A DNA stretch of 61,627 nt from a virus (lineage: Duplodnaviria; Caudoviricetes), in IMG/VR virus record IMGVR_UViG_3300037963_004084, positions 1 through 61,627 of that record; one strand, given 5' to 3'. The position numbers and the translations under genes are program-made. Of this stretch, positions 1 to 61,627 are shown in pieces; position 1 is the stretch's first letter; each line of letters begins with the position of its first letter. The notes beneath the pieces are model-generated. The model was not told where the DNA came from. It saw only the letters and a list, made by a program, of their open reading frames with translations, and ran no database searches.

Positions 1-98
1 TTTTCAGCGGGGGTAGATTTGGGGTCCGTAACTTTCTTGAAAAGATCTGACTGTCTCTCAAAAGAATTCAATAACGGCTCGATGTCGCCCAGAGGAGT
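1..98. repeat. Terminal direct repeat / circular assembly overlap (left copy)
   Basis: Bases 1-98 are identical to 61529-61626, and a reading frame runs in phase across the join, so the unit genome is 61,528 bp. Confidence 0.95.
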
Positions 99-3000
99 AA
101 TTTGGTTGGCGTCTAGACCCCGCTGCTCAGGAATAAAGCCCGCGTCCTCTGGCTTATTGCTATCAAGAGCTTTCAATGCTCCGACAATACGTTGAACTAC
201 CTGTTGGTAGTTTGAGTTCCGCTCCCCACGGAGAGAGGGGCCTAATCTAGCTACAATCTTTGTGAGTTGTCTACTAAGCGCCGTGACGTATGGAGAACTT
301 AGACCGTCAAGGGCATCAGCAAAAACCGATTCAGTTGTAGCCCCCTTCACCACCCGCTGCACATCCATGCGGACCATCTCAGACAATGCGATTGCCATTT
401 CTTTTGGGGACCCCTCTCTAAGAGCCTGTAATTTGGGTTCGGCGTCCGCCTCCGCTTTCTCCCGCGTCTCTGGACGGAGGTAATTAAATCTATCACTTAC
501 CTGTAAGTAGTCTTTGTATGCCTCTACAAGAGCATCAATACCCACCTCTTCAAGTATCGCCTCTCTTTCAGCGTCTGTAACTACTAGTTCGTCTACTACG
601 TGGACAGTCTCTTCTAGTGTCATCAGCTCAAGCTCATTTCTAACTCGCCTCGATGCGAGTCGGAACATCTCTAGAGCTTGGGCTCCACCCTCTTCACTAG
701 CAAGATGGGCAGGGTCGACCGAGCCTACGCTAGACAGATATTGAATGTCACCTAGCAGGTCGGCCTGCGACTGCAAAGCATCGGTGTTAAAGTTAACCTG
801 TGTGATCGTTTTCTGTACCCCACCTTCTTCTATGGTAATCACCTCTTTAAAGGCGGGCGCAAACGCTTTGAAACCCAGACCCCGACTCCTTAAATCCTCT
901 GCATTAGTAAACACTACTCGCACCCCCGTAGGAACTTGCCTACTTACTTCATCTCTGAGGAGCTGCGAAAACAGAACTTGCTCTGCAAGGCTAGCCTCTT
1001 CGTCGCCAGATCGTCCTTCTTCTCTAGCTTTGACAAAATCATCAAGATACGATTTGAACAAATCAATCTCGGGTCCGTCAACGAGTCCCTGAGATAGTCG
1101 TTTATCTAGGTCCGCGCTCAGACCTCTCTTCAACCCAACAAGGTCAACCTGTTGTTGGACCCCCGCAATAATCCTAGCTCGGGTATCCTCGTAAGATTGA
1201 GTAAGATCTCGGGAGCCCCTCAGCTTCGCAAAGTTATAAATAGTATCAACTACTTCGGCTTGCTGTTTCTCAACACCCGTCCGTACACCGAACATGGTCT
1301 TGATCGCATCAATAATTCTACGGAACAGACTCCTGTCACCAACAGCTATCTTGCGGGTAGCCTCTTGGAAATCAGAAGAACTGAGCCAGCTAGTAAAGAA
1401 TTCTTCAAACCCACGGGCGGCAGGGAGAATAACATCCGACCCTGCCGTACCCTCCATCGCTGCTTGGGACGCATCGAGCGTCGTCTCATCAGCCCCTGCA
1501 TAGAATGGAAGATCTCCACTAGCGGCAATAACGCCCGAAGGGCCCACCAGTCTAGCTGTCTGTCTTCCTGTCTCGAATACATAATCGAGATTGCGGTTCG
1601 CTATACCTCTCTTCTTAGAGTTTTCCCACTGCTTGCGAGCGCGATCATAGACCACCTGCATTTGTTTTTTGGCAGCTCTCTGACCAGACGTAAGTTCTGC
1701 GTCAGGGGCGGATATAATCCTCTGGAAAACGGCATGACCTACTTCGTGCAGAATTACAGAGATGACGCCATCCCCATATCTGCCGCTCACATTCACAGTA
1801 ACTTCCCCCGTAGGGCTGAAGCTACCGGCAAAGTGATTGCCAGCCTCAATTATAACTGGAGTTAAGTTTGTTCTTATGTAGTCCTCAAATTGAAGTAGAA
1901 GATCTGCGGCCATACGGTGGTCTGGGCCAGCATTCTTGAGGACATTGATGAGGGATTCTACGTCTCTGTTTTCTAAACCAAGATCGGCGATCTCTTGGAT
2001 GTTCATCTCCTTAATTCTTTCTTGGAACTTCTTATCCAAGAAACTAGGAGCGTAGTCTGCCTCCGACCGTGACCTGTAACCGTTGACCACCTTAACAACA
2101 TCCGTCGCGTCCAATTCTATGCCCGCGCCTTGGACGATTGCGGTTGCCGCTGTCCCACCCGCGAGTCCTCCTCCCATCGCGTTGATCGAATATAAATACA
2201 AGATCGCAGCCCCCGCTCCCTTAGAAGCGCCCAACCGCGTTGAGCCGCCCATCATTGCGGAGCCCAGCGCCGTCACTGTAGACTGCATAGATTCGTTCAC
2301 AGAATCCGGTACAGTGTCGGACCACCCCTTGGGTAGCGCGCGCATAGCCTGTTCAAATCTATCTATCACCTCTAACACAGGCGTATCATTCTCGATACCG
2401 AGATTTATGATGCCCGCCCCTTCCAGAGCTTCGATGTAACTCCTGATTACCCGTGCGTCAGTAGCTAGGAAGTAATCTCCCGCCTTAGCCTGAATTTCCT
2501 TGATAAGTGGATCGACCTCTACTTCTCCAACACCCGCCAGTGTGCTAGTGTCTGGTGCGTCTTCTTTGGGGGCTTCATCTGGGGAACCCGTGTCTGATGG
2601 AGAGGCGAGCTCAGCAGGTTGGACAACCGACCCCGATTCAGCTCGGGCTTTATCAGATATCTGTTTAGTAGATGCTTTATCCAACCTATTATCGATATCC
2701 CCCTTGGCGGCATTATAATTAGGAGTGGGTTTCTCAGAGTTTGCACGGCTTCCTTCCGACGCCGCCCCCTCATGTCTTGTAAGATTTGAAATATGTTCCG
2801 CAACCGCATCAAAAATGCTCTGGCCTTCTCCAGTTGGGATACCCCTCCCCAAGAATTTGCTCAGCACAAACCCAAACAATTCGTTTGCGGTTTCAAAATC
2901 AGCTTCTGTTTTACCCGTCAGCTTAGTCAGATCAGAAAAGTCTTTCTCACCCCTATTGAAGAGAGCCATAATCGCCTCTTCGTTAGTCTGTCCTTCAGAC

Positions 3001-6000
3001 TTGTTCGTCACTGCTTGAAGTATGGCGACCTCTACGGCGAAGCGGGCTCCCTTCGCGTTCAAATCCAAAGTGAACGTATACCTCGCATCTTCTTCACTGT
3101 TAGAGAGGAGTTTCAAGTTCTTTATGCTCCTCGTACTCAGTGGGAGCGGCTGGTCGTATATGTAGACGCCTTTGTCATTGATGCTCCCACTTAGCAGCCC
3201 CTCAACATACGACAGAATTCTTTGAATTGTCTGAGCAATAGTTAGAGACTCTTCCACTCGACCAGACCCTCGGGTGGGGTCTTCCTTGTTTAGAGAAACA
3301 TCTATTCGCGCACTGGTGTTAATAAACTGCAACAGAGTATTGGTTTTTTGTGCCTCTGTAGTGGCCAATTCATCTGCGCTGCTGGTTTTCTTGTGGGTGT
3401 AGTTGCCGCTAGCCCTCACCTCGGAACCACTCCCGTCTCCTACAGGGTAGTACACAGACCTCACCTCCCCCACATCGGCTGCACTCTCCCGCCCATGTGT
3501 ATCCGCTCGGAGAGTCTGGTTGACTTTCTCTCTCGGAAAATCTTTAGGGATGGGGATCGAGTGGACGTTCACTACCTGATCGAGAGCCACCTTCATGGCT
3601 CTGGGATCGTTGTTAAACAGAATCACAATCTCGTTAGTACCACCGTTGCCTTTGCCATCATCGAAGATGCCTCCGGGGGTATCTCTAATCGTGTATATGT
3701 CTGTCTTGCTGAACTGTTGTCTGGTCTTCTGTAAGGTCGCCCATTGTTCGTCGGGAACCTTTGTTCCCATGATAGACTCTAAACTCGCCCTTACTTCCTT
3801 CTCCGTTGTCAGCGGAGAGCCGCTCTCATCAAACTGAACGAGAGGATACCTCGCGTATACGCCTTCAAACTCTCGGTCAGCCGCAGCTTTCTGATCGGTA
3901 GGGTTTACTTTGATGCTTGAGGGGAAACCAAACACGGCGGTCCCCATCCTCCTCAGCGCATTTTTAGCGCCTCCCCTACGAAGGGCACCCGCTTCTACGT
4001 CTTCTTCTACAATAGCGTCGAGTTCGTCCTTGGCCTTCTGTTTAGGGTCGATTTCCAAAAGGACACCTTTGTCCTGTTTCACGGGTCCCTTACCCGCATC
4101 CCTATCAGGCTTCTTCTCACCCTTGGTGGTGACTTTTTCTACATTGGTGGGGTTGCCCTCTTCATCTGTATCAAAGAGATAGATTGGAACTGTATCCACC
4201 AAGTCTCCCAAGTCGTCGCGGAGCTTTTGCTCAGTTGAGCGGTATTTCCTCTCAGTTCCTGTCCTAGGGTCGAGCCCTTCTAATTCTAGAGCCCTGTCGT
4301 AAAACCGATCAGCATCCCTATCTAGTATCTTGGACTCCCTCTCTAGTTCCTCTATCTTCTTTTGCTTGGCTGCAATATGCGGAAGGTCGCGCGCGTACCT
4401 AGCAAGGTATGCGATTGTCTCAGCATCTGAGCCAACCGGAACATTTAGCCTAGTATTTATAGTCAGCGGCCCCCGTCCCGAGCGTGCCAAAGTTCCCGAG
4501 ATGATCTTAAAAGCATCTCGGCCCTCAGACACATTCCCTCGGGGAGCGAATATAATAACAGCTTTTCCCTCGGGGGTTACTAGCTGCCATGTTCCGCCTT
4601 CGTTTTTCTTTACCGCTTCTTTGGAACTCGTTTCTATTTCATCTATTAGTGCCTTAATCTCATCTCTGAGCTCCCCGCTCTGCTCCATTTTTTCTGTAGC
4701 GAGTTTAGCGAGTTTACCTGACTCAGCCTCATCTACGGAAATCTTTTCATCAGCCTCGTAGATATCACGCTCGGCAAGGATCTCAACAAGCTCAGGCTGG
4801 GCCTCTTGTTTTAGTACTCCATCGTTGAAATTATATCCTTTGGTTTCTACAAACTCCCCCAACGCCGGATCAAAAACCAAGACAATGTTATTGAGAGATT
4901 GGTTCGGCTTGGTGCTATCGAGGGTTACGTTGGTTCCGGGCGCAAGGCCCGTAAGCATACTGGGTATATCTGCGGGATCGCGTACACTGTGCAGAACGTG
5001 GGGGGAATTAAAGGCTTTAGCCGTGGTTCCTGATTCCTGACCCGTGGTTCCTGATTCAGGGGCTGGAGGTGTGGGTGCGGGCAAATCCGCTTCGTCCTTC
5101 CCCGCTATATCCCAATCTCGACGATCAACCGAGGTGATCTCCTCTCCTTTGGCGAGCTTAGCTTGAATCTCCTGAACCCGCTTGGCGAAGTATGCGTCAG
5201 ACTTGGCCTGCACCTCGGGAGTGACTCCTGAAGTATCGACCTGCGGCTCCCCGGCTATCTCACGCATATAGTTCTCGATAGTAACTAGGTCTCGCTCGTT
5301 CTCGAATCGCTCACCCCTATCAAAACCTTCAGGAGGATCTTGGAGCTCTGCTCGTAGGCGTTGATGCCTATCACGGAGTTCTTCCAATCTTTCCTGAGGT
5401 CTCGGGTCACCCGCCTCCGCCGCTTCATCTGCCTTTGCTTCAGCACGGGCCTCCAAATCCCGTCGCTCTTTTGGGCTAAGGGGTGTCGGATCAACCGATT
5501 CTTCCTCGGTCTCTGGCTTTGAGACAATACTGTCAATAGCCGTTTCAGAAATGTCGCCCGAGCGTTTGCTCTTGGAGAACATAGCTAGATAGACAGCTCC
5601 TCGTCTATCGTCCTCTTTCCGTTTAAGAATTTCTATGTCCCCCTCACTCTTATAAATATCAGATCGTACAATCGTACCTTTCGGATACTTTTCTGTATCC
5701 CCGTCCACATCCTCGTCCACATCCCCGTCTACCACTGGGTCTGGCTCCAGCTCTTTCCTACGAGTATTAAGCGCCAGAAGATCTTCGAGGGTATCTTTTA
5801 ATCTCCCCAAAAGCTCCAGCTCTGCTGCACGGGTTCCTTTATCAGAGAGATCCCTTCGACGGGCCTTATAGGCAATCCTCTTGTCCAGTGCATCTATCAA
5901 ACCCTGTGTGGGTGTGTCCGTGAAATAATCCTGCCCCACTCCCCCACGGTATGCTCTCGGAGGGCCAGCTTCTGCGCGTTCCTTAAGAGCATCTAGCCCA

Positions 6001-9000
6001 TTTTTGATGCTGCTGATTGTTTGTTTCAGGACGGGCTCATCCCTTTCGATACGGGCCAAGTCCTCTGCCTCTTGTGGGTCTCGCCGAACCTGAGACATCA
6101 ACTCTTCTACCTCTGCTGTGGCATCCTCTTTTGTCATGCCCCTCCCCACAACGAGCGCGTTGATAAGCTCGCTTTTAGCGTCGGGTGTAACAGCAGTCCC
6201 GCCTGTACCCGAAGACTCTTGCGCGGAAGACGACTCTGCTTGAGCTCTGTTAGCCGCCGCGACCGCCTCACTCTGCTGTTCTGCTGTGGAGTTTTCCACA
6301 TTAGCGTCCGCATCACCCTCGGTGATCCCAGTCTGTAGCTGGTGAATAATGTAAGCTACAAGATCCTTCTGTTCTTGAGTAAGGTCTTTATCAGCCGCGA
6401 ATTCTTCAATCTGAGAAATGATCGCCTGCCTTTCAACCAACGAAAAATCATTGGGATTCAAAATGACCGGCAGCATCTCAGCCGACAAAACCTCCAGACC
6501 GATTGATTGTAGAAAGCCTAGGATTCTTTCTTCCTCCGCTAGTGCAGCTTCTTGTGTTAGCTGCGCCTCTGATTCGGCAATTTCAGGTGAAGAACGCTGT
6601 AGAGATGTCCCAAGTTGATCCGCTATTTGCTTTTCAATAGCTTCTCTTTCTTTCTTCGATTTCGCGGCGGCGAGCTTTTCTTGAAGCGGCTTTACTCTCT
6701 CTGCTGCGGCCCTCTCCCGCTGATCTTCGAGCTGTTGCTGGGCTTCGTCTGCGGCTGCTTGCGTGTCCGTGTCCGTGTCCGTAGGGGTGGATGCGTCTGC
6801 GGCTGCGGCTGCGGCTGCGGTTGTGGCTGTGGCTGTGGCTGAGGCTGTGTCTACCTCCGGTTGGGCAGACGCTTCGTCCATCGCAGCGAGAATCTCCTCA
6901 ACTGTGTTGGCAGTTTCTGTGCTTCCGGTAGCCTGTAGCTTAGCGACAGTTTGCTCCCTGATATCGCTGGCTATTTCACGACGGACTCTCGCCTCGGCCC
7001 CCTCTCCCATCGTCCCCCTGTTTGCACGGGACTCAAGAGTTCCTCTGACACCACCACCAAGAGCCCCCAGACCCGCCCCATATGCAGCACCAATGAGCCC
7101 TTCTTTTGCGCGGTCTAAAAATGGGCGATCCCAGTCATCTGCGGAAGTTCCTCTGGCCCCCCATGAGCGGGCGTACGTGTTGAGTAAAGCGTCCGACCCT
7201 TCCTGAAGGGATTCCGCAAGTACTCCGCTGCCCGTTCTCTTTAGAAAGGTATGGCTCATTTTAGCTAAACCCTTCTCTAAGACTTTACTAGTTATGTCTT
7301 TCGTAGCTTCCCCTAAAGAAGCATAGGGTTTCTGCCTTAGTTTCTCTAGTATGGCTTTAAGTCCGCGAGTAGTCCCTCCTCTAGCGGCCCACGTTTCTAA
7401 GCCACCCAATCCCAGTCTCTTCAAAGGTCCCACGCTACCAAGACTGTGGAGACCAAGTACGGTAGCTACCGTAAAAAACCCACCCAAGAAAGCCGCTCCC
7501 GTCGCCCTGTCCTCGATCTCTTCGGCGCTGAGAGGCTTGCCATCAGCGTCGGTAGCCCCCTTCAAAAGCATGTGCATGTCTCCATACGTGTGCCCCGCAG
7601 AGCGCAAAAAAGCGGGAGCCGCCATCGCGGGGAACATCACTCTTTTGGAGCGCATTCCTTTTGCCGCAGCTTCAAAAAGTTTTACCGCCGAGGTTGCCTC
7701 AGCGGTCTTTGCCACCCCCTCGCGTACGAGAGGCAGGGGTTTAACTTTGATAAGCTTCTTCTCTATTGCCTTCTTTACTGTGGCCTCCACAGATTCTTCA
7801 CCGGCTTCTTTCAGGAGTGTCCTCATTCCCCCGCCCACCAGACCAGCAGCATAAGCCTTAGCGGTGCTCCGAACACCGTACTTAGTCCCAGCCGCACTCA
7901 GGTACATAGCGCCCCCCGCGCCCCCCGTTGTCACTGTTAACCCTGTGGTGGCCGTAAGGTCTACAGCTAGCGGGGCGATAAACATCACCCCATCATCCAC
8001 GTATGACGCTTGTTGCCCAAAGATAGAGCTAAGAGCTTTATTCGCCTCACGTTCCGCCGCCCCCTGTTTAAGAATATCCCCACCTAACTTCTCCAAGAAA
8101 ACAGGGTCATCCCCAGAAGTGACTAGGTTTTGAGCCTTACCCGCAATGAGGGAAAGCGCCCCCACCAGATCTCCAGAAGCCTGTAAAATAGATCTGCCAA
8201 CTCGATTATAGAAATTTTTTCCGCTCTCTGTGTCCAGCCATTCTCCTAAAATCTCCCCCCGCGATTTGCTGGATTTAAATTTAGGATCGTATAGATCGGT
8301 CGTTTTAATGTGGTTGAGCCACGAATTTCTTAGATCTGCGGTCCCGTCGAAAATACTATCGACAATCGTTTCATATGAGTCGTCGAGTTTCTTCTTCCTA
8401 AGAGCGCGGAGACGCTCCTCTAGCGTCCTACCCTCCGAGTCTTTGGTTTCTCCCTGTAAGTTTATGAAAACCTTATCTCCATCTTCGTCTACATCTGGGA
8501 AGTAAAGGTCTTTTCGCTTCGAGAGATTATTAAAATCTTCGCTTGCCAGTAGCAACGAGGGATGAATATAAGACTGCTTAGTTACTGGGTCTTGATATAC
8601 ATTTTGCTCAACTCTCTCTAGAGATTGCTTTGCTCTGGTCTTTTTGCCAGTGAAGATAAAACTCTTTTTCTCATGGTATGTTACAGCCCCCGTTTGGACT
8701 GCGACATTCATAGCTACCGATCTAAGAGCGTGAAGTATCTCTTTATCACTTAGGTGCCCTCGTAGTGGGTAAAGTGTTCTAAAGTCTTTTAACGCTTCCC
8801 TGTAGTCTTGTGTGACTACCCTGTTGTACTTGCCAACACCAGCCTTGGTCACGCCGGTAGGAACACCATCCACTTCAATAAACTCATGTACCTCACCCCC
8901 CTGCGGTTTAACGTGAGAAGCCCCTACTTGTTTTATAAGGGCACGTAAACTATCATACAGGTAGCTGTCGGTGGGGACCGACCTGATTAACCTCTCTGCT

Positions 9001-9764
9001 TCGTCTGTATTTCGTGTCGCAGTAGAGCCCTTTGCAGGATTCTTCAGACTATCAATAACTTGCCCTTTAAGCCTTGGGTCTATTGCCCCCGCCTGAATAG
9101 ACTTTGTAACCTCCGCGTCTATATTTTCTTGAGGGATGTCCTTACTAACTATCTGCCCATTTATAATCGCTACACCAAGTCGCCCATCAGACAGCTTGGT
9201 TCTCAACCGGTCTTCTTCTGTGCCCTCTACAAGAAGTTTCAAGGGATCTTCAAACCCCTGTAAGTAGCTCAACTCCTCGTCAGTAAGAGATTCTCTTTCG
9301 CCCTCCATGTTAGGCTCAAGAATATCCGCCCCGACTTGTTTTTCTCTGAGTCGGGCGAACCTAACGGGATTAAAGCCTGACTCTTCGAGGCCATAAAAAA
9401 TATCCCCCACACTAGACCCGTCTTCATTTGTTGACGAGTAGTCTCGTCTCAAACGGAAATAGTTTTCCAGTACCTCGGACTCTTGCTCAGCATAAGGGAC
9501 CTCGGAAACTCTATCGAGAGCTTCGTTGAGTTCTTCTAGGGAGCTAAAGCCCTCAACTAGAAACCTGTCGGCTACTTCGGTCGCCCCCTTTTTTTGCAGG
9601 GGACTTTCGATCTTACTGATAAAACCTTCTATATAATTTCTGAAGGAATTACGCAGAGCAAAATCGTCTTCGGGGTCTATAGGTCTGTTCCTGTGATCAA
9701 CAGGATTAGTCTTCTTCCACTCACTAAATGAGAGTGCGTCTTTAAGCTCATTCAACGATGACAT
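1..9764 (-). CDS. Giant (~4,490 aa in total) polyvalent-like / internal virion protein, N-terminal part; continues through the origin into 57811-61528
   Basis: ATG at 9764 (MSSLNELKDALSFSEWKK...). The track calls no stop-terminated ORF in this frame, and segments translated by hand are open. The frame matches ORF 57811..61599 (61599 = position 71). It contains VILHEVGHAVF at 1734-1748. Confidence 0.85.
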   Translation of the reverse strand, partial: MSSLNELKDALSFSEWKKTNPVDHRNRPIDPEDDFALRNSFRNYIEGFISKIESPLQKKGATEVADRFLVEGFSSLEELNEALDRVSEVPYAEQESEVLENYFRLRRDYSSTNEDGSSVGDIFYGLEESGFNPVRFARLREKQVGADILEPNMEGERESLTDEELSYLQGFEDPLKLLVEGTEEDRLRTKLSDGRLGVAIINGQIVSKDIPQENIDAEVTKSIQAGAIDPRLKGQVIDSLKNPAKGSTATRNTDEAERLIRSVPTDSYLYDSLRALIKQVGASHVKPQGGEVHEFIEVDGVPTGVTKAGVGKYNRVVTQDYREALKDFRTLYPLRGHLSDKEILHALRSVAMNVAVQTGAVTYHEKKSFIFTGKKTRAKQSLERVEQNVYQDPVTKQSYIHPSLLLASEDFNNLSKRKDLYFPDVDEDGDKVFINLQGETKDSEGRTLEERLRALRKKKLDDSYETIVDSIFDGTADLRNSWLNHIKTTDLYDPKFKSSKSRGEILGEWLDTESGKNFYNRVGRSILQASGDLVGALSLIAGKAQNLVTSGDDPVFLEKLGGDILKQGAAEREANKALSSIFGQQASYVDDGVMFIAPLAVDLTATTGLTVTTGGAGGAMYLSAAGTKYGVRSTAKAYAAGLVGGGMRTLLKEAGEESVEATVKKAIEKKLIKVKPLPLVREGVAKTAEATSAVKLFEAAAKGMRSKRVMFPAMAAPAFLRSAGHTYGDMHMLLKGATDADGKPLSAEEIEDRATGAAFLGGFFTVATVLGLHSLGSVGPLKRLGLGGLETWAARGGTTRGLKAILEKLRQKPYASLGEATKDITSKVLEKGLAKMSHTFLKRTGSGVLAESLQEGSDALLNTYARSWGARGTSADDWDRPFLDRAKEGLIGAAYGAGLGALGGGVRGTLESRANRGTMGEGAEARVRREIASDIREQTVAKLQATGSTETANTVEEILAAMDEASAQPEVDTASATATATTAAAAAAADASTPTDTDTDTQAAADEAQQQLEDQRERAAAERVKPLQEKLAAAKSKKEREAIEKQIADQLGTSLQRSSPEIAESEAQLTQEAALAEEERILGFLQSIGLEVLSAEMLPVILNPNDFSLVERQAIISQIEEFAADKDLTQEQKDLVAYIIHQLQTGITEGDADANVENSTAEQQSEAVAAANRAQAESSSAQESSGTGGTAVTPDAKSELINALVVGRGMTKEDATAEVEELMSQVRRDPQEAEDLARIERDEPVLKQTISSIKNGLDALKERAEAGPPRAYRGGVGQDYFTDTPTQGLIDALDKRIAYKARRRDLSDKGTRAAELELLGRLKDTLEDLLALNTRRKELEPDPVVDGDVDEDVDGDTEKYPKGTIVRSDIYKSEGDIEILKRKEDDRRGAVYLAMFSKSKRSGDISETAIDSIVSKPETEEESVDPTPLSPKERRDLEARAEAKADEAAEAGDPRPQERLEELRDRHQRLRAELQDPPEGFDRGERFENERDLVTIENYMREIAGEPQVDTSGVTPEVQAKSDAYFAKRVQEIQAKLAKGEEITSVDRRDWDIAGKDEADLPAPTPPAPESGTTGQESGTTAKAFNSPHVLHSVRDPADIPSMLTGLAPGTNVTLDSTKPNQSLNNIVLVFDPALGEFVETKGYNFNDGVLKQEAQPELVEILAERDIYEADEKISVDEAESGKLAKLATEKMEQSGELRDEIKALIDEIETSSKEAVKKNEGGTWQLVTPEGKAVIIFAPRGNVSEGRDAFKIISGTLARSGRGPLTINTRLNVPVGSDAETIAYLARYARDLPHIAAKQKKIEELERESKILDRDADRFYDRALELEGLDPRTGTERKYRSTEQKLRDDLGDLVDTVPIYLFDTDEEGNPTNVEKVTTKGEKKPDRDAGKGPVKQDKGVLLEIDPKQKAKDELDAIVEEDVEAGALRRGGAKNALRRMGTAVFGFPSSIKVNPTDQKAAADREFEGVYARYPLVQFDESGSPLTTEKEVRASLESIMGTKVPDEQWATLQKTRQQFSKTDIYTIRDTPGGIFDDGKGNGGTNEIVILFNNDPRAMKVALDQVVNVHSIPIPKDFPREKVNQTLRADTHGRESAADVGEVRSVYYPVGDGSGSEVRASGNYTHKKTSSADELATTEAQKTNTLLQFINTSARIDVSLNKEDPTRGSGRVEESLTIAQTIQRILSYVEGLLSGSINDKGVYIYDQPLPLSTRSIKNLKLLSNSEEDARYTFTLDLNAKGARFAVEVAILQAVTNKSEGQTNEEAIMALFNRGEKDFSDLTKLTGKTEADFETANELFGFVLSKFLGRGIPTGEGQSIFDAVAEHISNLTRHEGAASEGSRANSEKPTPNYNAAKGDIDNRLDKASTKQISDKARAESGSVVQPAELASPSDTGSPDEAPKEDAPDTSTLAGVGEVEVDPLIKEIQAKAGDYFLATDARVIRSYIEALEGAGIINLGIENDTPVLEVIDRFEQAMRALPKGWSDTVPDSVNESMQSTVTALGSAMMGGSTRLGASKGAGAAILYLYSINAMGGGLAGGTAATAIVQGAGIELDATDVVKVVNGYRSRSEADYAPSFLDKKFQERIKEMNIQEIADLGLENRDVESLINVLKNAGPDHRMAADLLLQFEDYIRTNLTPVIIEAGNHFAGSFSPTGEVTVNVSGRYGDGVISVILHEVGHAVFQRIISAPDAELTSGQRAAKKQMQVVYDRARKQWENSKKRGIANRNLDYVFETGRQTARLVGPSGVIAASGDLPFYAGADETTLDASQAAMEGTAGSDVILPAARGFEEFFTSWLSSSDFQEATRKIAVGDRSLFRRIIDAIKTMFGVRTGVEKQQAEVVDTIYNFAKLRGSRDLTQSYEDTRARIIAGVQQQVDLVGLKRGLSADLDKRLSQGLVDGPEIDLFKSYLDDFVKAREEGRSGDEEASLAEQVLFSQLLRDEVSRQVPTGVRVVFTNAEDLRSRGLGFKAFAPAFKEVITIEEGGVQKTITQVNFNTDALQSQADLLGDIQYLSSVGSVDPAHLASEEGGAQALEMFRLASRRVRNELELMTLEETVHVVDELVVTDAEREAILEEVGIDALVEAYKDYLQVSDRFNYLRPETREKAEADAEPKLQALREGSPKEMAIALSEMVRMDVQRVVKGATTESVFADALDGLSSPYVTALSRQLTKIVARLGPSLRGERNSNYQQVVQRIVGALKALDSNKPEDAGFIPEQRGLDANQITPLGDIEPLLNSFERQSDLFKKVTDPKSTPAE
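6763..6850. repeat. Low-complexity hexamer repeats (GTGTCC, GCGGCT, GTGGCT) encoding a Thr/Ala/Asp linker in the giant protein
   Basis: Tandem 6-mers visible; the minus strand reads TASATATATTAAAAAAADASTPTDTDTDT. Confidence 0.8.
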
Positions 9765-9798
9765 GCTTAATGTATGTGTATGTTATTATTCTCCTACG

Positions 9799-10995
9799 TT
9801 ACTGGAATAAAGGTTTTGCTCCTCCACGCCCCTCGTCTATCTTTTCTTCGTCGGGATTGAGATCTGGATCTATGTCAACCGCTTCCCCTAAACGAGAAGC
9901 TCGTTCACTTAGACTTGTTTCGAGGTCAAGCTGCTGCTCAAATATTTTTGCAATAAGGGCTGCACCAAAATCATCGAGACTTTGTTTCGTTACATCGAAA
10001 TCTTCGCCTTCTGGATTTTGTAACTGTTTGATGATTTTTTTGGTGTTAAATTTAAAATTGCCGTCATCGTCCGTAAACAGTTTGTTTTTGTCGACAGCAG
10101 GAATCAAGTCGCTTAGCTCGTCTGATGCTGGTCTATATAATTTTTTGTAGCGTGTTAATAAACCAACCAAATAAGTTGGGGACAAACCTTCAACAACATC
10201 CTCGTCCGCATAAGGAGGGCCATCCCCCGCGCGTTTCTTTTTGAAACCCTTAGGATTTCCAGCATCTTCTAATAGTTTAGCAACTTGTGATCGTATAGAT
10301 GAGATACTCTTTATTTCAGATTTAACTCTTTTCTCCGCTAGATTAAGTGCGGAGGCCCTAGTCGAAACATCAGGGGGGAGATTGTCTGGAAAGACGAGCA
10401 GCTCTTGAAGGTCTTTAGAAAGATCATCTACAAAGTTTCCGTCTTCATCTTGTTCGATGATACTTAAAAAATTATCATACTTGATGTTCGTGGCGTCCTG
10501 TTTCTCTTGTTCCGCGATTAGGTCGTCTAATATTTTTTGCTGGTTAGTTATAACCTGATCCCGCGAATCACGGGCCTGAGCCCCCATTATTTCGTAACCA
10601 ACAAGAAACTTAGGATCATTAGCCAACCTTCGTGTCTGGGCCATGTATGCTTTCGCAGCAGCGGCCCCACCCTCATTAAACATAGCGCGCAGCTCATCCT
10701 CCCTGCGACGCAGCGAAGTCACATGCCTCGACACATTTTGGGAGGCGGCAGCAGCAGCTTGCCCTTGCTGAGTGTTTTGACGTGCGGTGGCTTCGGCTTC
10801 TCTAAGTTTTACTTGCGTGGTAAGAAGATTGGTCCTGCGCTGGGACATCGCGTCATACGTAGCCGCAATCTTGTTCAATCGGTCGGCTCGTTCAAGCGAA
10901 CGATCCGCTTCACGCTGCCTCCCCTTCGGAGAGAAGTCGGTGCGAAACTTAAACGTATCTCTAAGAGCCGCTGTTCCTAAATCTTCTTCAGCCAT
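9799..10995 (-). CDS. Probable internal virion (ejection) protein
   Basis: 398 aa, helical and Ala/Gln/charged-rich; lies directly upstream of the giant ORF, like the T7 gp14-16 order. Function inferred from context. Confidence 0.55.
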   Translation of the reverse strand: MAEEDLGTAALRDTFKFRTDFSPKGRQREADRSLERADRLNKIAATYDAMSQRRTNLLTTQVKLREAEATARQNTQQGQAAAAASQNVSRHVTSLRRREDELRAMFNEGGAAAAKAYMAQTRRLANDPKFLVGYEIMGAQARDSRDQVITNQQKILDDLIAEQEKQDATNIKYDNFLSIIEQDEDGNFVDDLSKDLQELLVFPDNLPPDVSTRASALNLAEKRVKSEIKSISSIRSQVAKLLEDAGNPKGFKKKRAGDGPPYADEDVVEGLSPTYLVGLLTRYKKLYRPASDELSDLIPAVDKNKLFTDDDGNFKFNTKKIIKQLQNPEGEDFDVTKQSLDDFGAALIAKIFEQQLDLETSLSERASRLGEAVDIDPDLNPDEEKIDEGRGGAKPLFQ

Positions 10996-10996
10996 T

Positions 10997-11671
10997 TTAA
11001 CGATCCTTGTTCTTACCCTGACCTCTTCTATTCTTCTTCTCTTCTTTTAATTTCCTCAACTCTTTCTTCAACTGCCTAGCAGTTCGTTTCGCACCTCTCT
11101 CATTTTTTCCTGCTGCGTCCTCCGCTCTCTTGGCGTCCTGCTGCTTTTGTATCCCTCTCGCACGATCTACTTGGGCATCATCTTGTGTTCGTGTGCCCCG
11201 ATCCGCCCCCGCAGCGGGGTCGCGGCGAAGAGCAGACGCCCCTGATACATCCCCCGCTCGCTCCGCTTCTCGCACTCTCCGTCGGGCCTGTGCTCCGGGT
11301 GTATCTAGAGATCTCCTATACGGATTGCCGGACTCATCTCTGAGACCAGTAATAACCAGACTTGTTCTCATGGGTTCTCTTCCAGAAACAGCGTCGGGTT
11401 CCCTCGCTTTTTGCATGGCTTCCGCTCTCTGATTACGGCGTGCCCTGTCTTGTCGTCTCAGTCTCTCTACGGGAGTCAGCCCCGGCTCCAGAGGAGTACC
11501 TAGTTTACTGAGGAACTTATTTAGATTTTCATCGGTAATCCCAAGACTGGTTGCGCTATCCTGTAGTTCTTGCGGCAAACCACCTTTCATTTTGAGGGGG
11601 TCCAAAGAACCCGCGCGGTACATATCTTTTAGCTCTTGCGCTAATCTTTTTCGAGGGTCTGACTCGGCCAT
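10997..11671 (-). CDS. Probable internal virion protein
   Basis: 224 aa, highly charged with a basic C-terminus; first of three co-oriented genes ending in the giant ORF. Confidence 0.5.
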   Translation of the reverse strand: MAESDPRKRLAQELKDMYRAGSLDPLKMKGGLPQELQDSATSLGITDENLNKFLSKLGTPLEPGLTPVERLRRQDRARRNQRAEAMQKAREPDAVSGREPMRTSLVITGLRDESGNPYRRSLDTPGAQARRRVREAERAGDVSGASALRRDPAAGADRGTRTQDDAQVDRARGIQKQQDAKRAEDAAGKNERGAKRTARQLKKELRKLKEEKKNRRGQGKNKDR

Positions 11672-11676
11672 GCTCC

Positions 11677-11704
11677 ATACTATATTTTAGGGCTTATAAG
11701 TCAA
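11677..11704 (-). promoter_or_regulatory. Sigma70-like promoter, leaderless geometry
   Basis: TTGACT-N16-TAGTAT, with the ATG of 11671 5 nt downstream of the -10. Confidence 0.5.
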
Positions 11705-13485
11705 TCCAGCAGTACAGCGTCGGGATTGTTCAACGCACCGCTTAGCTGTTTGATGGTAACAGGTGGGCGAACTGGCCCTGAACCCGACTGAGGAGGGTCA
11801 ACTGCCACAAGCCCCAACCGCTGGCGGGCGCAGTCCAAAGCTAAAAATGCTGCGTCAGCTAAGTCAGGGCTCTTTCCAAAACGCCCCTTAAATTCAGGCT
11901 TGGGCTCGATTTTTACTTTGAGCGACCCGCTCTTTACCAGCTCGTAGTTCCGCGCTGTTATTTCCTGCGCCAGATCTGCCTGCACACCAAACATCTGCTT
12001 TGTCCGCATCAATTCTTTTCCCACGAACCACATCTCGGACACCCGATTTGTGTACATTTCAGCGCCTGTCAGCTTACTGCTAAGGCTCACCCGCTTGTCG
12101 CTGGGCTTGCCTCCGAAGCTGACCCGAAGAAAAGTGCCCGCCCACTCCCCCGCCAGAACATCACAGAACGGAGCCCCCGCTCCGGTGGCGTCAACAGCTA
12201 CGTTCTCTGCGGATATGTTTCGCTTCTGGCACTCCTCCTTAATTTGCCTGACAATCTGGTAAGTCCGAGGCACCGCTTTATTTGTAGCGTCATCGTTAAG
12301 ATGTATAGCTTCCCCGAACTCTATTACGTATTGACCGGATTTATCATAGCCAACTGAAGCGGTATACAAAATCGTGCGGTCGCCCCCATTTGTGAATGCG
12401 GGGTCGCACCCTGCAATATTAGTGGGGGTGCCCGCCCATTCCACTTTGTTCATAGCCCCCGAAGTAGTCAGCTCTGATTCGCTGTAGATGCCGGTAGTCT
12501 CATCCGAGTCAAAGAATACGGCACGGACCATTCGCATATAACCCCGAGACTCGACCCCCAGTAAGGCTTTGTCTTCATCAAGTTTTTCCTGTGTGGGTAG
12601 CCACGGGTATACTGTTTCCCCCGCCACAATGTTGGGAGACCTCTCCCCATCTAAGCGTAAATAATGTCCTCCCCACTTCGTCTCCCAGTTATCGTAAGTA
12701 TTTGTATCTACGGAGTCCCACCCGTCTTTGGGCTGAGACCAGATACCAAAAGCATCGAAGCGGCTATTCGGGTTCGACATGCCGATGAGTTGGAACTCAG
12801 GGTTCTTCGACAAGTTCGTTAAACCCGCCTGAAGAATTGCCTCTGAGAGTTCAGATAGCTCATCGCCGATTAAGATCACCCGCTTCTGTTTGATACCAAT
12901 AAATTTACCAACAGCTTCTCTTGTCTTTGATTTCTCTGCTGATATGAGGCTGAGACCCGCTCGTTCGATAAGAGTCTGGTTCTCATCTACGTAAGCTGCG
13001 TTACCTATTGAGTCTCTTATTTTTATCGGAGCCCCTTCAATGACTGTCAGCAAAGACATAACAGAACCCCATATACGTTTCCTCGCTTCCCTTAATGTAG
13101 TAGAGGTCATCAACACCAGAGTATCTTTGGGCTGTGATAACCAATTAACTATTCCCCAAGCGGCCATAGTGTGCGACTTCCCCGAAGAAGCTGACCCACC
13201 AATAGCTAGGTATTTGTGTTCTATGGCAGATCTAATCATCTCCTCTGCCCAAGGATGTTTTACCATCAGCTTTTCCGGCAGATCTTCGTGATTCCACAGC
13301 TCATCACACACCCTCCAAAAGTAATATTCTTTTGCCTTGGCATGTGTGTGGTGTGCGAATCCGTAGAGTAAAGCAGTAATTAAACTTGTAGGGGGTATGA
13401 GCAACCCACCCACATCCATGCGTTTAGTTTTTGGGTCGATGCTAGGTTCTAGTATCTGCTTGTAGGTCTTCTTCTTTGAAGCCAT
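11701..13485 (-). CDS. terL: Terminase large subunit
   Basis: Walker A GSASSGKS, Walker B ILIGDE, coupling motif GMSNP, nuclease motifs GCDPAFTNGGD and SPDLADA. Confidence 0.92.
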   Translation of the reverse strand: MASKKKTYKQILEPSIDPKTKRMDVGGLLIPPTSLITALLYGFAHHTHAKAKEYYFWRVCDELWNHEDLPEKLMVKHPWAEEMIRSAIEHKYLAIGGSASSGKSHTMAAWGIVNWLSQPKDTLVLMTSTTLREARKRIWGSVMSLLTVIEGAPIKIRDSIGNAAYVDENQTLIERAGLSLISAEKSKTREAVGKFIGIKQKRVILIGDELSELSEAILQAGLTNLSKNPEFQLIGMSNPNSRFDAFGIWSQPKDGWDSVDTNTYDNWETKWGGHYLRLDGERSPNIVAGETVYPWLPTQEKLDEDKALLGVESRGYMRMVRAVFFDSDETTGIYSESELTTSGAMNKVEWAGTPTNIAGCDPAFTNGGDRTILYTASVGYDKSGQYVIEFGEAIHLNDDATNKAVPRTYQIVRQIKEECQKRNISAENVAVDATGAGAPFCDVLAGEWAGTFLRVSFGGKPSDKRVSLSSKLTGAEMYTNRVSEMWFVGKELMRTKQMFGVQADLAQEITARNYELVKSGSLKVKIEPKPEFKGRFGKSPDLADAAFLALDCARQRLGLVAVDPPQSGSGPVRPPVTIKQLSGALNNPDAVLLD

Positions 13486-30927: not shown

Positions 30928-31895
30928 TACAAATCAGCTTCGTTATAGATTGCCATGTTTCTTTCTAGAGAAACTTGCAGTGCGGCGGAAAGTTGGCTTT
31001 CCCAAACAATAACCTCTCTAATAGTTCCATCAAAGGGGCTATTAGTTGCTTTCCTTATGCCAATCCTGAACCTGTCGGATGCGCCAATGTGTTTATCCTC
31101 GTCCGTGTCCTTGGTGCTTTGAGTCCCGTTGATTCTAATTATTTGTGAATTACCATCCCCACCTTGACCACTCGCTCTGGTGCGGTCATATGATGCAAGA
31201 ACCACAATCCTGTCTTCTGGGTCAGAGGACACAGAACCGCTGGTGTCTAAGTCGTGGGAGTCTACAGAAAATCTAAACCCATCAGGTTCTAAAAAGATCA
31301 ACTCTACACCATCGTTGAAATTATCTACATTGCTAACCATCCCCATATGGTTGTCGAAGTTCTGGAACTCCCCTGCCCACGCAAAGGTAAAAGCGTCACC
31401 GGTATTAGCGTTTGGTAGCCTGTAATCATCTACTATTAAAAAATCCCCATGTGTGCTGAAGCCTCCAGAGGTCTCAAATTTTAAAGCGAGCTTCGTTTTG
31501 GTGCCGGATACAACTAAAACAGGCTGTTTGCTAGATGTGCTTTGAACAGCATCTGGGTCGGTGTCAAACCCCGTCCAAGAACCCCCACCTGCCTGTGTGC
31601 TGCTATTGCCGCTCTGGTTATACCACTTGGAAACTGTAACATTACCTCCTCCTGCGAAGGCTCTAAGAGTTGTGCCCCCGCTTGTAAGGCTTTCGTTAGT
31701 TACTTCTTTGCCGTTAGTGAATCCAACATCGACTTCATTTCCACTTGAGTCCCTAGCTCTCAGCGCGTAGCCGGTGTAGCCTGCGCGTAGTTTTCTTAAA
31801 CCAAACGCAAGCCGCGCTTGGGGCATACCGCTTATGTCCAGAGGAGGGGTGACATTTTTTTGAGATAGCCCCCCGAGTGATGGCCTGATTATCAT
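30927..31895 (-). CDS. LamG/concanavalin-A-like virion protein
   Basis: AFGLRKLRAGYTGYALRAR...VSKWYNQSGN...AVQ...QP...FDGTIREVIVW. Confidence 0.7.
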   Translation of the reverse strand: MIIRPSLGGLSQKNVTPPLDISGMPQARLAFGLRKLRAGYTGYALRARDSSGNEVDVGFTNGKEVTNESLTSGGTTLRAFAGGGNVTVSKWYNQSGNSSTQAGGGSWTGFDTDPDAVQSTSSKQPVLVVSGTKTKLALKFETSGGFSTHGDFLIVDDYRLPNANTGDAFTFAWAGEFQNFDNHMGMVSNVDNFNDGVELIFLEPDGFRFSVDSHDLDTSGSVSSDPEDRIVVLASYDRTRASGQGGDGNSQIIRINGTQSTKDTDEDKHIGASDRFRIGIRKATNSPFDGTIREVIVWESQLSAALQVSLERNMAIYNEADL

Positions 31896-34800
31896 AGCAG
31901 GTTGCCAAATACAGCGTAGGTGTTGGCTGCGATACGTATGATCGTGGCGGGCTGGTAACCTTGAGCAAGTGTAACTGTCCCGTTGGTTGTGCCATTGATT
32001 ACCATGCTATTAGAAGCCGTGATATCAAGATCGGCATTAGGGTTCATTACGGTAACATTAAACCCTGCTCCGAGATCCCCCGTAATTGAAAGGTCATCAA
32101 AGTTAGCGTGAGTCCCGCTGATAAATGTTCCATTATCTGCGGCGACCAGAGTATAATCCGCAGTTTTTTCTGACACGCTAACCCCACCTTTAATCTCCCC
32201 ACTAACGGTTAGCGGCTTAGAGAAGACAACCTCCTCCGCACTACCGTCGAGGGTTATGTAGGGCGTAACCCCACCGCTACCGTCATCCGTCTGGAAGATG
32301 ATGTCCTTGTCGTCAGTGAAATTGGTAACATATATGTGGCCCGTGCTGTTCTCTATCTTAGAATCAAGAGCGTCGTGGAAGATCTGGAAGTCATCGCTAC
32401 TCCCAAGTGCCAGCCGTTTATTGTCAGGGAACTGAGTGTATCCGGTGCTCCCGTCTAGGAAGAAGTAAGTCTCTACGCCACCGCTGCCATCGTCACACCG
32501 GAAAATCATGTCCCCGTCGTCGGTGTTATTGGTGAACTGAAGATCCCCCGTGTAATTCGCAAACGTCGTGTTGGTCCCGTTATGGGCCATAATGAAGTCG
32601 CCCGTGCCATTGCTACCCAGTCCGATGTAGCTGCTGTCTGGGAAGATTGTGAACAGGTTTCCAGAACCGGCTGCTGACCCGTCTAAACGGAAGTATTCAG
32701 CCGTGCCACCGCTGCCGTCGTCCGTTTTAAAGATTATGTCTTCATCATTAGCGTAATTAACGATTTCTATGTCTCCAGTATAGTTCCCTAAGTTCGTGTT
32801 AGAACCATTATGGTTGAGGATAAAATCCCTACCGCTACCAAAAGCTAACAGAGAGTTATCGGGGAAGACCGTGAAAGGGTTCCCGCTAGAAGCGGAACCA
32901 TCTAAAAAGAAGTAAGTCTCAACCCCACCGCTGCCATCGTCACATTTGAATATTAAGTCTTTATCGTTCGTGTGCTGGGTGATGATAAAATCACCACCAT
33001 TGTTCTGGATAATGCTATCGGTCCCGTCGTGCCTTATAAGCAAGTCTTGCGAGTCACCAAACGCTAATTGAGACAGGTCGGGAAATTGTGTCAACGGATT
33101 CCCGCTAGAAGCGGAGCCGTCTAAGAAAAAGTAGGTCTCAAGGCCACCACTACCGTCGTCGCACCGGAAAAGGATGTCCTTGTCGTCGGCGTAGTTTTCG
33201 ATGTGCAAATCCCCCACAAAGTTTTGCACGTAACTGTTTGTCGCGTTATGCCAAATTAACAGATCCTTACTGTCCCCGATAGCAAGGATTGAGTTGTCTG
33301 GGAATATTGTGTAAGGGTTGGACCCTCCGTTAGCGGACCCGTCTAGGAAGAAGTAAGTCTCAGTTCCGCCACTGCCGTCGTCGGATTGGAAGATGATATC
33401 TTTGTCGTCCCCCTCATTTGAAATAGTAAGGTCACCAACTTTGTTCGTTATAAAGCTGTTGGTGGCGTTGTGGTATATCTCAAGATCATCGCCGTCCCCG
33501 CAGAAAAACTTGTGCCCATCCAAGACGCGCACGTCCCCGTCCACATCAAGAGTCTTTGCTGGTGCCGTAGTGCCGATGCCGACGCGGCCCGAGGTATCGA
33601 TCCGCATTGCCTCGCCATTGTTAGAATAGAATGTCGGAAAATAGCTTGAGCTGTTGTAGTGGCGAAATTCCCCGCTGCTCTGGTTGAGTTTGGCGGAGCT
33701 TACTACGGTGCCGTCATAGGTGGCAAATTCTATTCCGTTGAATACACTTCCCGCAACTGACTGTTGAATCCTTATGTTGTTTTCGTCGCCTTTTAGATGA
33801 ATGCCTGCGGCTGGACTCGTCGTCCCGATCCCGACGTTTCCGCTGGAATCAATCCGCAGTCTCTCAGTGTTATTTGTTGCGAATCGTGTGGCGGTATTTT
33901 CGTAGTTCCATATCGTCGCCAAACCTCCGCTATTGATACCAAATAGCAAGCCAGTGCTACCACCCACTCCAGTGGAGTCGTTGGTTAAGTTAAGATATAC
34001 TGCGCCGGAATCGTGAACTGTGAGCCGTCGTGCCGGTGACGCAGTTCCGACGCCGACGTTGCCGGAGGAGTCGATAGCGAGCATCTCCGCACTCCCCGGA
34101 TTTGATCCAGTGTTAATCTTGAACTTATCGCCGTCGCCATTGTCGATTCCCGCCGACCATGATTGACCCGAAACCTGAAATTTCAGAGAGGCGTCTCCAC
34201 CCCCCGCAGATTCAATCTCCATCTTGGCCGCTGACGCTCCGTAAAGGTGAAGCTGTTCCTGTGGCGTGGCGGTCCCGATGCCGACGTTGCCGCTGGGTAT
34301 AACGGTCATGGCTTCCGTAGAACCGTCTACTCTAAATTTCAGATCCCCAGTGGACGACCTGTTGATAAGGTAAAAGTCGTCGCCCGACATCGCTACATCC
34401 GTATTGTAGCTAGCATCTGAAGAATCGGATAAACGAACATTTGCCTGTGTCGCGTGGGATATTTGCAACCCTCCTCCTGACGTAAAGCTGGGGGCTGAAG
34501 TTCCGATACCAACGTCTCCGTCAGAAGAAATTTCCCCTGTAACGCTAAGGTTTCCAGATTCATCAACAGAAGCAACAGTAGTAGCGGAAGCTGCGCTACT
34601 AGTGTGGGTTTTAAAATTAACAGCTTTACCTCCCGCACTCCCTAGCGTGACAAGATTTATTTGGCCACTGTTGTCACTAACAACAAGTTCAAGGTTTGCA
34701 TCTGTTCTCCTCTGGAGACCTGAACTACCCGTCCCAAGTTTAATCTGGTGAGACCCATCTATAGATAGGTCGCCATCAATGTCCACATTGCCCACAATGT

Positions 34801-51888: not shown

Positions 51889-52177
51889 TCTTGAACTGAT
51901 AGCAGAGATACTCAAAGACGACTGCGCGTTCGCAGACTACCCAGTAGTACCCGCTTGCCATGGAGAACCAGACGAGTCTTCGGTCTTGTTCTGGTTCGGT
52001 AAGTGGCTGGGGTCCCAAGATCGTTCGGGCCACCTGTGGTGGGAAGGCAAGGCAGCAGGCACGGTTTACTTGTCTCGCCCTGCTTTCCGTCTTTGGGAAA
52101 ACCATAGAGAAGAATTAACAGCGTTAGCTATGTTACATAAAGAGAATCATTATCATGAGCACGGAATTAAAAGATAA
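51872..52177 (+). CDS. Hypothetical protein
   Basis: Overlaps both neighbours. Confidence 0.55.
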   Translation: MSSSPSLELIAEILKDDCAFADYPVVPACHGEPDESSVLFWFGKWLGSQDRSGHLWWEGKAAGTVYLSRPAFRLWENHREELTALAMLHKENHYHEHGIKR

Positions 52178-57584: not shown

Positions 57585-57814
57585 TCCATATAGTTCGTGA
57601 GTTCTTGCCCAACGGTATTCCCATCATGATCGACGGGGTATTAGACGGGGAACGTGTGGCCCCCGCTTCTACCCGCATCTTCCCCCTTAGTGTGGGGGAA
57701 GATGCGCCGTCTGTGATTGGCACTCCCTACTATTGCCACCACGACCCCGACGGCCTTGGTAAGAAGATAGCCACCCGCCTCACCAAGGTTTATGTAGACT
57801 CAATCCCCGACTAA
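57581..57814 (+). CDS. Hypothetical protein
   Basis: ATGA-coupled; converges on the giant ORF. Confidence 0.55.
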   Translation: MIHIVREFLPNGIPIMIDGVLDGERVAPASTRIFPLSVGEDAPSVIGTPYYCHHDPDGLGKKIATRLTKVYVDSIPD

Positions 57815-61626: not shown

Positions 61627-61627
61627 G

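Follow-up and report, generated by a model that had tools for sequence, protein, structure and literature searches.

A giant gene interrupted by the contig ends of a tailed-phage genome probably encodes an N4 gp50-like ejection protein without a recognisable RNA polymerase core

Does the viral genome in IMG/VR record IMGVR_UViG_3300037963_004084 carry, hidden across the two ends of its contig, a single giant gene, and what might the product of such a gene do? The window, by which we mean the whole stretch of 61,627 nucleotides (nt) analysed here, is a tailed-phage genome by its recognised genes, is classed as linear in IMG/VR and has a CheckV completeness of 99%. A sequence-only reading had proposed that a gene of 13,482 nt, coding for 4,493 amino acids (aa) and occupying about 22% of the genome, spans the contig origin and that its product is a co-injected, multi-domain protein of host takeover or anti-defence. 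The gene is real and conserved and the circular join holds. Its product is probably the largest ejection (internal virion) protein of the phage, built like gp50 of phage N4, without an RNA polymerase (RNAP) core and with strain-variable cassettes.

In the linear record the gene appears as two incomplete minus-strand frames. The open reading frame (ORF) at 3..9764 starts with an ATG at 9764, codes for 3,254 aa and is open at its 3' end, and the frame at 57811..61626 codes, with an open 5' end, for 1,271 aa. Gene calling on the linear record would yield no more than the TTG-started ORF of 1,262 aa at 57811..61599 within the latter frame, the portion that the sequence-only reading saw displayed, and catalogues of this phage group miss its largest protein because linear gene calling shows only these last 1,262 residues. 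Bases 1-98 of the window are identical to 61529-61626, and the terminal overlap (61529..61627) matches at 98 of 99 positions, the sole mismatch being G at 61627 versus A at base 99. An exact-repeat test of the record ends fails only because this last base differs. Collapse of the overlap yields a circle of 61,528 bp in which the minus-strand frame runs from 9764 to 1 and on from 61528 to 57811, a total of 13,482 nt comprising 4,493 codons and a single terminal stop at 57813-57811, or 21.9% (13,482/61,528) of the genome. The 5' part (1..9764, minus) codes for residues 1-3254 and two bases of codon 3255, and the 3' part (57811..61528, minus) provides the last base of that codon and residues 3256-4493. 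Rotation and translation, the check suggested at the outset, return one ORF with no in-frame stop before the terminal one. Upstream of the ATG, in-frame stops are observed at 7-8 codons. The open frame extends far beyond chance, as the other two frames of the same stretch contain 269 and 367 stops.

The gene is also observed in one piece elsewhere. A protein collection holds a 4,491-aa single-gene version on a 61,648-nt contig, with an identical start (MSSLNELK) and two residues fewer in a low-complexity run, and the giant ORF is therefore already known from public collections as a predicted hypothetical protein. Uninterrupted genes are carried by the relatives L003 (4,568 aa on a 56,359-nt contig), L004 (3,948 aa), L005 (4,042 aa) and L010 (an open frame of 4,258 codons, the protein being about 4,234 aa), and all relatives align collinearly through the join. 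In addition, a 7,356-nt Logan contig from sequencing run X1 covers 60900-61626 and continues with 30 letters equal to window 99-128, thereby crossing the join; X1 is possibly the source sample, so that this contig represents another assembler but no independent sample. Combined, the overlap, the contiguous homologues and the X1 contig confirm the gene at the predicted length and position.

The identity of the product is not disclosed by standard family searches. With thresholds of E <= 0.1-1, Pfam gives no family for residues 1-3254 and a single hit, at noise level, for the remainder, PHROGs gives none for either half, and tblastn of both halves, the large terminase subunit (TerL) and a 736-aa structural gene against 50,697 phage records returns no match. 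A word-indexed search of 5.8 billion proteins retrieves only the close family, 7-9 proteins, all marine, together with the distant proteins P0010 and P0011. An exhaustive profile search with residues 2020-3194 against 1.84 billion representatives detects 40 proteins at E <= 0.001, 30 of which are 2,300-4,800 aa in length, the common part being nearly always a region with an HExxH motif. In local jackhmmer alignments, which resolve five conserved blocks, A to E, 42 rows do not belong to the close family; of these, 26 contain A, B and D collinearly and a further seven, from shorter proteins, contain B, D and E; the last word-indexed search, with a broad alignment, extends to members of up to 5,197 aa. 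As judged from these profile matches, the giant protein belongs to a so far unnamed superfamily of phage proteins of 2,300-5,200 aa.

The superfamily scaffold is collinear, and all of its blocks lie on the minus strand of the window. Block A (residues ~440-1010; 6735..8447), defined by profile work, is a Gly/Ala-rich hydrophobic region in which residues 592-612 (nt 7929-7991) and 754-781 (nt 7422-7505) may span the membrane. A middle region follows, consisting of residues 1010-1340, a variable cassette at 1417-1789 and a domain termed M2 (residues ~1900-2340; 2745..4067), which by alignment is conserved in the close family and P0012 only; the close family as a whole conserves residues 1-1350 and 1900-4493 and varies at ~1350-1900. 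Block B (residues ~2500-2880; 1125..2267) is a predicted zincin-like metallopeptidase domain, identified by its HExxH motif and profile match. Block C (residues ~3030-3240; 45..677) is conserved and predicted to be helical. Residues 4098-4117 (nt 58942-59001) of block D (residues ~3290-4153; 58834..61425) form a strongly hydrophobic helix, and block E (residues ~4254-4475; 57868..58533) is a terminal module that accompanies block D in the same proteins. A strongly hydrophobic helix 255-395 aa before the C-terminus is found in all eight superfamily proteins checked, namely the giant protein, six other superfamily giants and gp123 of Cellulophaga phage phi18:3, as well as in four of four N4-like virion RNA polymerases (vRNAPs). 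This helix is a common feature that sequence profiles do not capture.

Block B connects the giant protein to N4. Its HEVGH motif lies at residues 2673-2677 (nt 1734-1748) and is followed by a conserved Glu2788-Phe2789 pair (nt 1398-1403); across 43 domain sequences H2673, E2674 and H2677 are 90-100% conserved and E2788 95%. The domain thus combines an HExxH helix with a downstream Glu helix, the arrangement of a zincin hub. For comparison we used N4 gp50 and six other full-length N4-like vRNAPs of 3,342-3,598 aa. In hhalign, the 43-sequence alignment matches the profile of these seven with a Prob of 96.2% (E = 2.6e-9) and the jackhmmer-derived block B with a Prob of 95.6% (E = 1.2e-8), residues 2669-2848 aligning to N4 2224-2369, HEVGH at 2673 to N4 HELVH at 2228 and the Glu-Phe pair to the N4 'NEF'. 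By these profile alignments, block B is homologous to the metallopeptidase (MPTase) domain of N4 vRNAP. N4 aa 2130-2448 have been described as a zincin-like MPTase in a region needed for encapsidation, and N4 vRNAP as packaged unprocessed (Iyer et al. 2017, PMC5512222). Consistent with this relationship, two of 14 superfamily members scanned match the 'virion RNA polymerase' family phrog_2206 within the HExxH region (profile positions ~1,890-2,240); the giant protein itself has no phrog_2206 match.

The C-terminal blocks lead to a second set of virion proteins. Two shorter superfamily members give tblastn matches in Cellulophaga phages phi13:2, phi19:3 and phi18:3 and in Pseudoalteromonas phage vB_Pun_Y3. 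With profiles of blocks D and E built from the giant protein's own jackhmmer alignment, hmmsearch detects both in phi18:3 gp123 (D, 3e-41; E, 2.5e-17), phi13:2 gp127 (D, 7.7e-41; E, 3.6e-16) and a 1,027-aa vB_Pun_Y3 protein with an ART-PolyVal-like N-terminus (D, 4e-60; E, 3.5e-20), and in gp123-type proteins the two blocks are matched in order at the C-terminus. In the phi18:3 record, the structural-protein label of gp120, gp121 and gp123 is 'based on experimental MS/MS proteomics analysis' (MS/MS, tandem mass spectrometry), a statement made in a GenBank note. On these profile matches, blocks D and E are homologous to an MS/MS-annotated virion protein. Phages phi18:3 and phi13:2 belong to the Pachyviridae, a member of which, Gundel, is reported to have podoviral morphology (PMC8776804). 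In vB_Pun_Y3 (L026:1-11337) two giant genes without cysteine are adjacent, one coding for a 'DdrB-like ParB' protein of 3,421 aa (2,741 aa of it covered by the analysis) and the other for the ART-PolyVal protein ending in D/E.

The giant protein contains no cysteine in 4,493 residues, while the 38 other ORFs of the window contain 125 in 12,465 (1.0%); at this background rate the chance of zero is 2e-20. Cysteine is likewise absent from the two proteins encoded immediately upstream (224 and 398 aa), from 41 of 44 family and superfamily proteins of at least 2,000 aa (6 cysteines in 164,785 aa), from 33 of the 39 representatives P0012-P0050 and from seven of seven full-length N4-like vRNAPs. Among known ejected proteins, T7 gp15 and gp16 and N4 gp51 and gp52 have none and T7 gp14 has one, as compared with 12 in N4 DNA polymerase, 8 in the primase-like gp43 and 6 in the N4 helicase. 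Lokareddy et al. (2024, PMC11445570) report, for 191 Schitoviridae, a cysteine content of 0.00075% in gp71 homologues versus 0.865% in proteomes, and state that suppression of cysteine is conserved in the ejection operon of the Schitoviridae, relating it to passage through the periplasm.

Gene order is in agreement with these observations. The minus-strand block begins with TerL (11701..13485; phrog_2, E = 6.8e-17), followed by a 224-aa Arg/Lys-rich protein (10997..11671), a charged 398-aa protein with no family hit (9799..10995) and, last, the giant protein. By position, the 224-aa and 398-aa products are candidates for the small ejection or internal protein and the middle ejection protein, respectively. 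The small-medium-giant order parallels T7 gp14-15-16, N4 gp52-51-50 and phi18:3 gp120-121-(122)-123; in phage DEV, gp73, gp72 and gp71, the vRNAP, are described as one operon equivalent to T7 gp14, gp15 and gp16 (PMC11445570). A distant relative, L015, retains the order as TerL, 561 aa, 327 aa and 3,352 aa, the three after TerL being without cysteine, and has the same convergent ATPase/DUF2201 genes after the giant gene. TerL is 78% identical between the two genomes (window 11701-13485 vs L015:2697-4487), the giants ~23%, and the two middle proteins have no similarity, suggesting that the packaging enzyme evolves far more slowly than the genes on the ejection side.

Block B homology to N4, D/E homology to virion proteins, the absence of cysteine, gene order and the hydrophobic stretches together support the interpretation of the giant protein as the phage's largest ejection protein, and the earlier idea of a co-injected internal protein of a podovirus-type phage gains indirect support from the first four of these. 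The polypeptide, of ~490 kDa, would be packed in the capsid, would pass unfolded through portal and tail at infection and would then aid DNA transport over the cell envelope. The hydrophobic, N-terminal block A may enter the inner membrane, and blocks C-E, the long helical C-terminal part, may dock the protein in the virion; in DEV, the C-terminal part of gp71 (gp71-C) is reported to bind gp72 (PMC11445570). The zincin could be either a structural zinc site or a self-processing protease. The position of the RNAP core would be taken by domains without assigned function plus the strain-variable cassette, and the variable central region would be 'cargo'. Packaging, ejection, membrane insertion, possible zincin self-cleavage and the cargo role are all inferred.

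Several observations weigh against this interpretation. Podovirus morphology is assumed, based only on the absence of sheath, tube and tape-measure hits. Outside block B, hhalign against the N4-like vRNAPs reaches at most a Prob of 45%, for a weak match of block A to N4 323-441 (E = 2e-4); jackhmmer reached none of the seven vRNAPs, and phmmer with N4 gp50 found nothing. MS-verified proteins are reached by way of intermediate sequences only, and a direct BLASTP of the giant protein against gp123 gives no better than E = 0.016. No peptidoglycan hydrolase domain was found, unlike in T7 gp16. The two upstream proteins have no detectable homology to their T7, N4, phi18:3 or L015 counterparts, and neither has a hydrophobic segment, whereas the DEV small ejection protein is a membrane pore. 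The giant gene also adjoins TerL, away from the main structural block at ~26-44 kb. Finally, both AlphaFold2 models, made from 9-row alignments, are poor: the mean predicted local distance difference test score (pLDDT) is 50.2 for residues 1995-3194 and 48.4 for 3294-4493. The structural check proposed at the outset was consequently carried out to little effect, as Foldseek with the two low-confidence models gives no PDB match at E <= 0.001, the top rows being generic helical repeats, and these outcomes are usable neither for nor against any interpretation.

An alternative is that the protein is never packaged and acts as an early polyprotein in the cell, a factory for replication or host takeover that its own zincin cuts into pieces. 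An HExxH domain amid a very long, multi-block protein, and the lack of any structural domain recognised by Pfam, are compatible with this, but it does not account for the homology of D/E to an MS/MS-annotated virion protein or for a total absence of cysteine common to known ejected proteins, and the gene lies in the TerL strand block, pointing away from the replication genes. We consider it unlikely. No anti-defence activity is readable from the giant-protein sequence, and the host-takeover or anti-defence part of the sequence-only reading is not supported.

Placement on the outside of the virion, whether as a fibre, adhesin or decoration protein of giant size or as a tape-measure-like ruler, is quite unlikely in our estimation. 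Fibres and tape measures are frequent among very long phage proteins, and an MS/MS label of 'structural protein' is silent on location within the particle. However, the giant protein is predicted, in low-confidence models, to be mostly alpha-helical with hydrophobic stretches, neighbours of sheath, tube, baseplate or tape-measure type were not found, the zincin domain is common to N4 vRNAP, an internal protein, and a recognised fibre-like gene with 4 cysteines is located elsewhere (31892..36316).

The protein could, in principle, be a true N4-type vRNAP whose core has diverged past recognition in the ~1,500 residues between A and B, and which would transcribe the early genes and pull in the genome. 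The overall layout is the same as in N4 gp50 and DEV gp71, with a hydrophobic N-terminal part, a middle, a Zn-motif domain and a conserved C-terminal part, and no other phage RNA polymerase is recognised among the 38 ORFs scanned. In opposition to this, hhalign of residues 1010-1340 and 1900-2500 against the seven vRNAPs gives a Prob of at most 0.8%, and the whole-family profile detects no PDB chain at E <= 10; structures of the N4 mini-vRNAP are present in the PDB. In addition, a ~92-96% identical relative has unrelated sequence in place of 373 residues of this middle part, which other relatives lack. The sole DxDGD-like motif (residue 426), a conceivable polymerase site, was dropped because P0009 does not conserve it. 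This alternative is very unlikely, and the giant protein is not a member of the N4 gp50 family, because the defining polymerase core was tested for and not found.

An assembly artefact, in which two unrelated open frames were falsely joined into a circle, has a negligible probability: the linear IMG/VR class, the imperfect final base of the overlap and the coincidence of an indel site with the contig end speak for it, but contiguous genes in L003, L004, L005 and L010, the single-gene call on another contig, the X1 contig reaching into bases 99-128 and the collinear alignments speak against it.

The largest-ejection-protein interpretation includes variation between strains, which is concentrated at two points in the close relatives. 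At residues 1417-1789 (4398..5516, minus), the cassette is replaced by an unrelated 163-aa stretch in L003, the ~92-96% identical relative, and is largely absent from L004, L005 and P0009. At the second point, just after block C, L003 carries a 255-aa insertion (L003 coordinates 9236-10000) between residues 3222|3223, which corresponds to window nt 99|98 at the inner edge of the terminal overlap; the 255 extra residues are also present in L012, and residues 2469-2673 of P0023 are a 40% identical copy of the inserted module. The G at 61627 is the base of the insertion path, and in three other runs (X5, X7 and X8) the contigs do not differ from G at this position. Forms with and without the insertion therefore probably coexist in nature, and the assembly would accordingly have broken at that branch.

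Neither cassette gives more than noise-level matches in Pfam. The L003 insertion contains an 'HGS ... GxGIYFT' pattern which we take to resemble that of PARP-like ADP-ribosyltransferases; this identity was rejected, as the ART-PolyVal hidden Markov model (HMM), Pfam (E <= 10) and phmmer against PDB give no support. The 163-aa replacement stretch (L003:4391-4879) has sub-threshold zincin-type matches, to SprT-like (E = 0.008) and Peptidase_M91 (E = 0.02), and possibly contains a second metallopeptidase-like motif.

Across the superfamily the A-to-B spacer varies from clade to clade. Pfam searches of 26 more family and superfamily proteins detect only DUF7178, MutS_I, LPD23, LPD37, LPD38 and sub-threshold ART-PolyVal, none of them in the close family. 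Within or near the spacer these are MutS_I in P0051, LPD37 in P0054, LPD23 in P0055, DUF7178 in P0028 and weak ART-PolyVal in P0056 and P0051; in P0051 (4,993 aa, on a 62,721-nt contig) MutS domain I (E = 8e-27) occupies residues 1691-1789, in the interval from block A to the zincin. An ESM Atlas feature search returned LPD38 in 10 of 30 hits and LPD22 in one hit (12% of members). An LPD38 (PF18857) identity was nevertheless discarded for blocks C, D and E, which match the LPD38-bearing part of P0057 with an hhalign Prob of at most 0.8%; P0057 has only block B in common with the superfamily. The LPD38 HMM has no match in the window at E <= 10, its control being unmatched too, and the MPTase-PolyVal HMM (PF18818) has no match in the window.

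The proposed kinship with polyvalent proteins of phages and plasmids consequently holds at the level of the superfamily, through MutS_I, LPD23, LPD37 and weak ART-PolyVal, and is not supported for the giant protein as a carrier of many enzymatic domains, in which the zincin alone is recognisable. Phage-type polyvalent proteins combine two or more distinct effector or enzymatic domains; here Pfam, PHROGs and the cassette scans add none to the zincin. The cargo or polyvalent idea has some footing because close relatives swap modules and other members carry effector-type domains. We tentatively suggest, as a possibility rather than an expectation, that the superfamily is a modular delivery chassis in which block A (membrane entry), the zincin (self-release) and C-E (capsid docking) are fixed and the cargo is swapped. 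The cargo hot spots would then be residues ~1417-1789 and the 3222|3223 site, with the 255 extra residues of L003 as one instance of cargo and the domains of MutS_I, LPD and ART-like type in other members as further instances. If this were true, marine phages would inject strain-specific effectors, akin to polymorphic toxins with variable tips, and the N4 virion RNA polymerase would be this chassis with one particular cargo.

The phage biology is relevant in the field because the phage is found in marine runs of seven studies. In 19 marine DNA runs at least half of the sampled words of the 60900-61627 segment of the window are present, and all 20 matching rows come from these 7 studies, the dated runs extending from 2014 to 2025. 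One metatranscriptome has a small share of this segment.

The remainder of the window carries further recognised genes. Plus-strand genes at 14.6-22.6 kb code for a RuvC-like resolvase, helicase, exonuclease, family A DNA polymerase and primase; an endolysin is also recognised, and the fibre-like structural protein mentioned above is 1,474 aa in length. No isolate phage shares TerL or the 736-aa structural gene, a portal candidate, at E <= 1e-5. At 50746-53513 a MoxR-like ATPase (phrog_1297) is located beside a DUF2201_N metallopeptidase and VWA-like DUF2201 protein, labelled 'HNH endonuclease' by PHROGs, a pair also present in L015. A 154-aa protein at 55169-55633 contains the C-terminal domain of the alpha subunit of bacterial RNA polymerase (PF03118, E = 5e-9) and is a possible decoy or adaptor for host polymerase. 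Just downstream of the giant gene's end are a gene similar to the Pyr_excise pyrimidine-dimer DNA glycosylase (56054-56527, E = 3.5e-11) and a Kyano_Gp96-family gene (56968-57288).

Polyvalent proteins, the N4 MPTase (PMC5512222) and cysteine suppression (PMC11445570) are already published. An RNAP-less gp50-like superfamily with an A-B-C-D-E scaffold and swappable cassettes was not found in print by targeted text searching, which is not a full survey. The giant gene ties uncharacterised phage proteins of 2,300-5,200 aa to the N4 gp50/T7 gp16 ejection class. It would indicate that this class exists without a polymerase, which bears on the role of the giant ejection protein beyond transcription, and the strain-level cassette swaps mark places where injected functions may be exchanged.

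How does the giant protein compare with known systems? Unlike phage-type polyvalent proteins, it has no second effector domain recognisable by Pfam or PHROGs, the MPTase-PolyVal and LPD38 HMMs are unmatched in the window, and a conserved A-B-C-D-E scaffold does not appear in the sections of PMC5512222 that describe those proteins; as in that description, it is very large, virion-linked and has a zincin-like MPTase hub domain, and other superfamily members carry MutS_I, LPD23, LPD37 or weak ART-PolyVal, D/E being fused to ART-PolyVal in vB_Pun_Y3. With T7 gp16 it shares the position of the largest of three proteins, ejection proteins in T7, in a small-medium-large order and the lack of cysteine, but it is 3.4 times longer and has no lytic transglycosylase domain in the Pfam search. 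Compared with phi18:3 gp123 and phi13:2 gp127 (1,935 and 1,990 aa), which are half its size, have no block A, B or C and come from phages with a Bacteroidota host, the homology is visible only via the superfamily profile; nevertheless, their C-terminal ~800 aa are homologous to D and E, they have no cysteine, and they are preceded by cysteine-free proteins of 227, 499 and (unlabelled) 103 aa, the 227-aa and 499-aa proteins and gp123 being MS/MS-annotated as structural in phi18:3.

The nearest parallel is with N4 gp50 and DEV gp71. The giant protein differs in having no recognisable RNA polymerase core, in being about 1,000 aa longer and in blocks C-E, which have no detectable similarity to the N4 C-terminal part. 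In common are giant size, the absence of cysteine, a homologous HExxH zincin placed after the middle region, hydrophobic stretches in the N-terminal part and the hydrophobic helix 255-395 aa before the C-terminus. In DEV gp71, transmembrane helices are predicted at 572-820 and a zinc motif is reported at 2100-2150 (PMC11445570); the giant protein has its hydrophobic stretches at 592-612 and 754-781 and its zinc motif at 2673. In each of these phages, the giant gene is the last of a small-medium-giant set.

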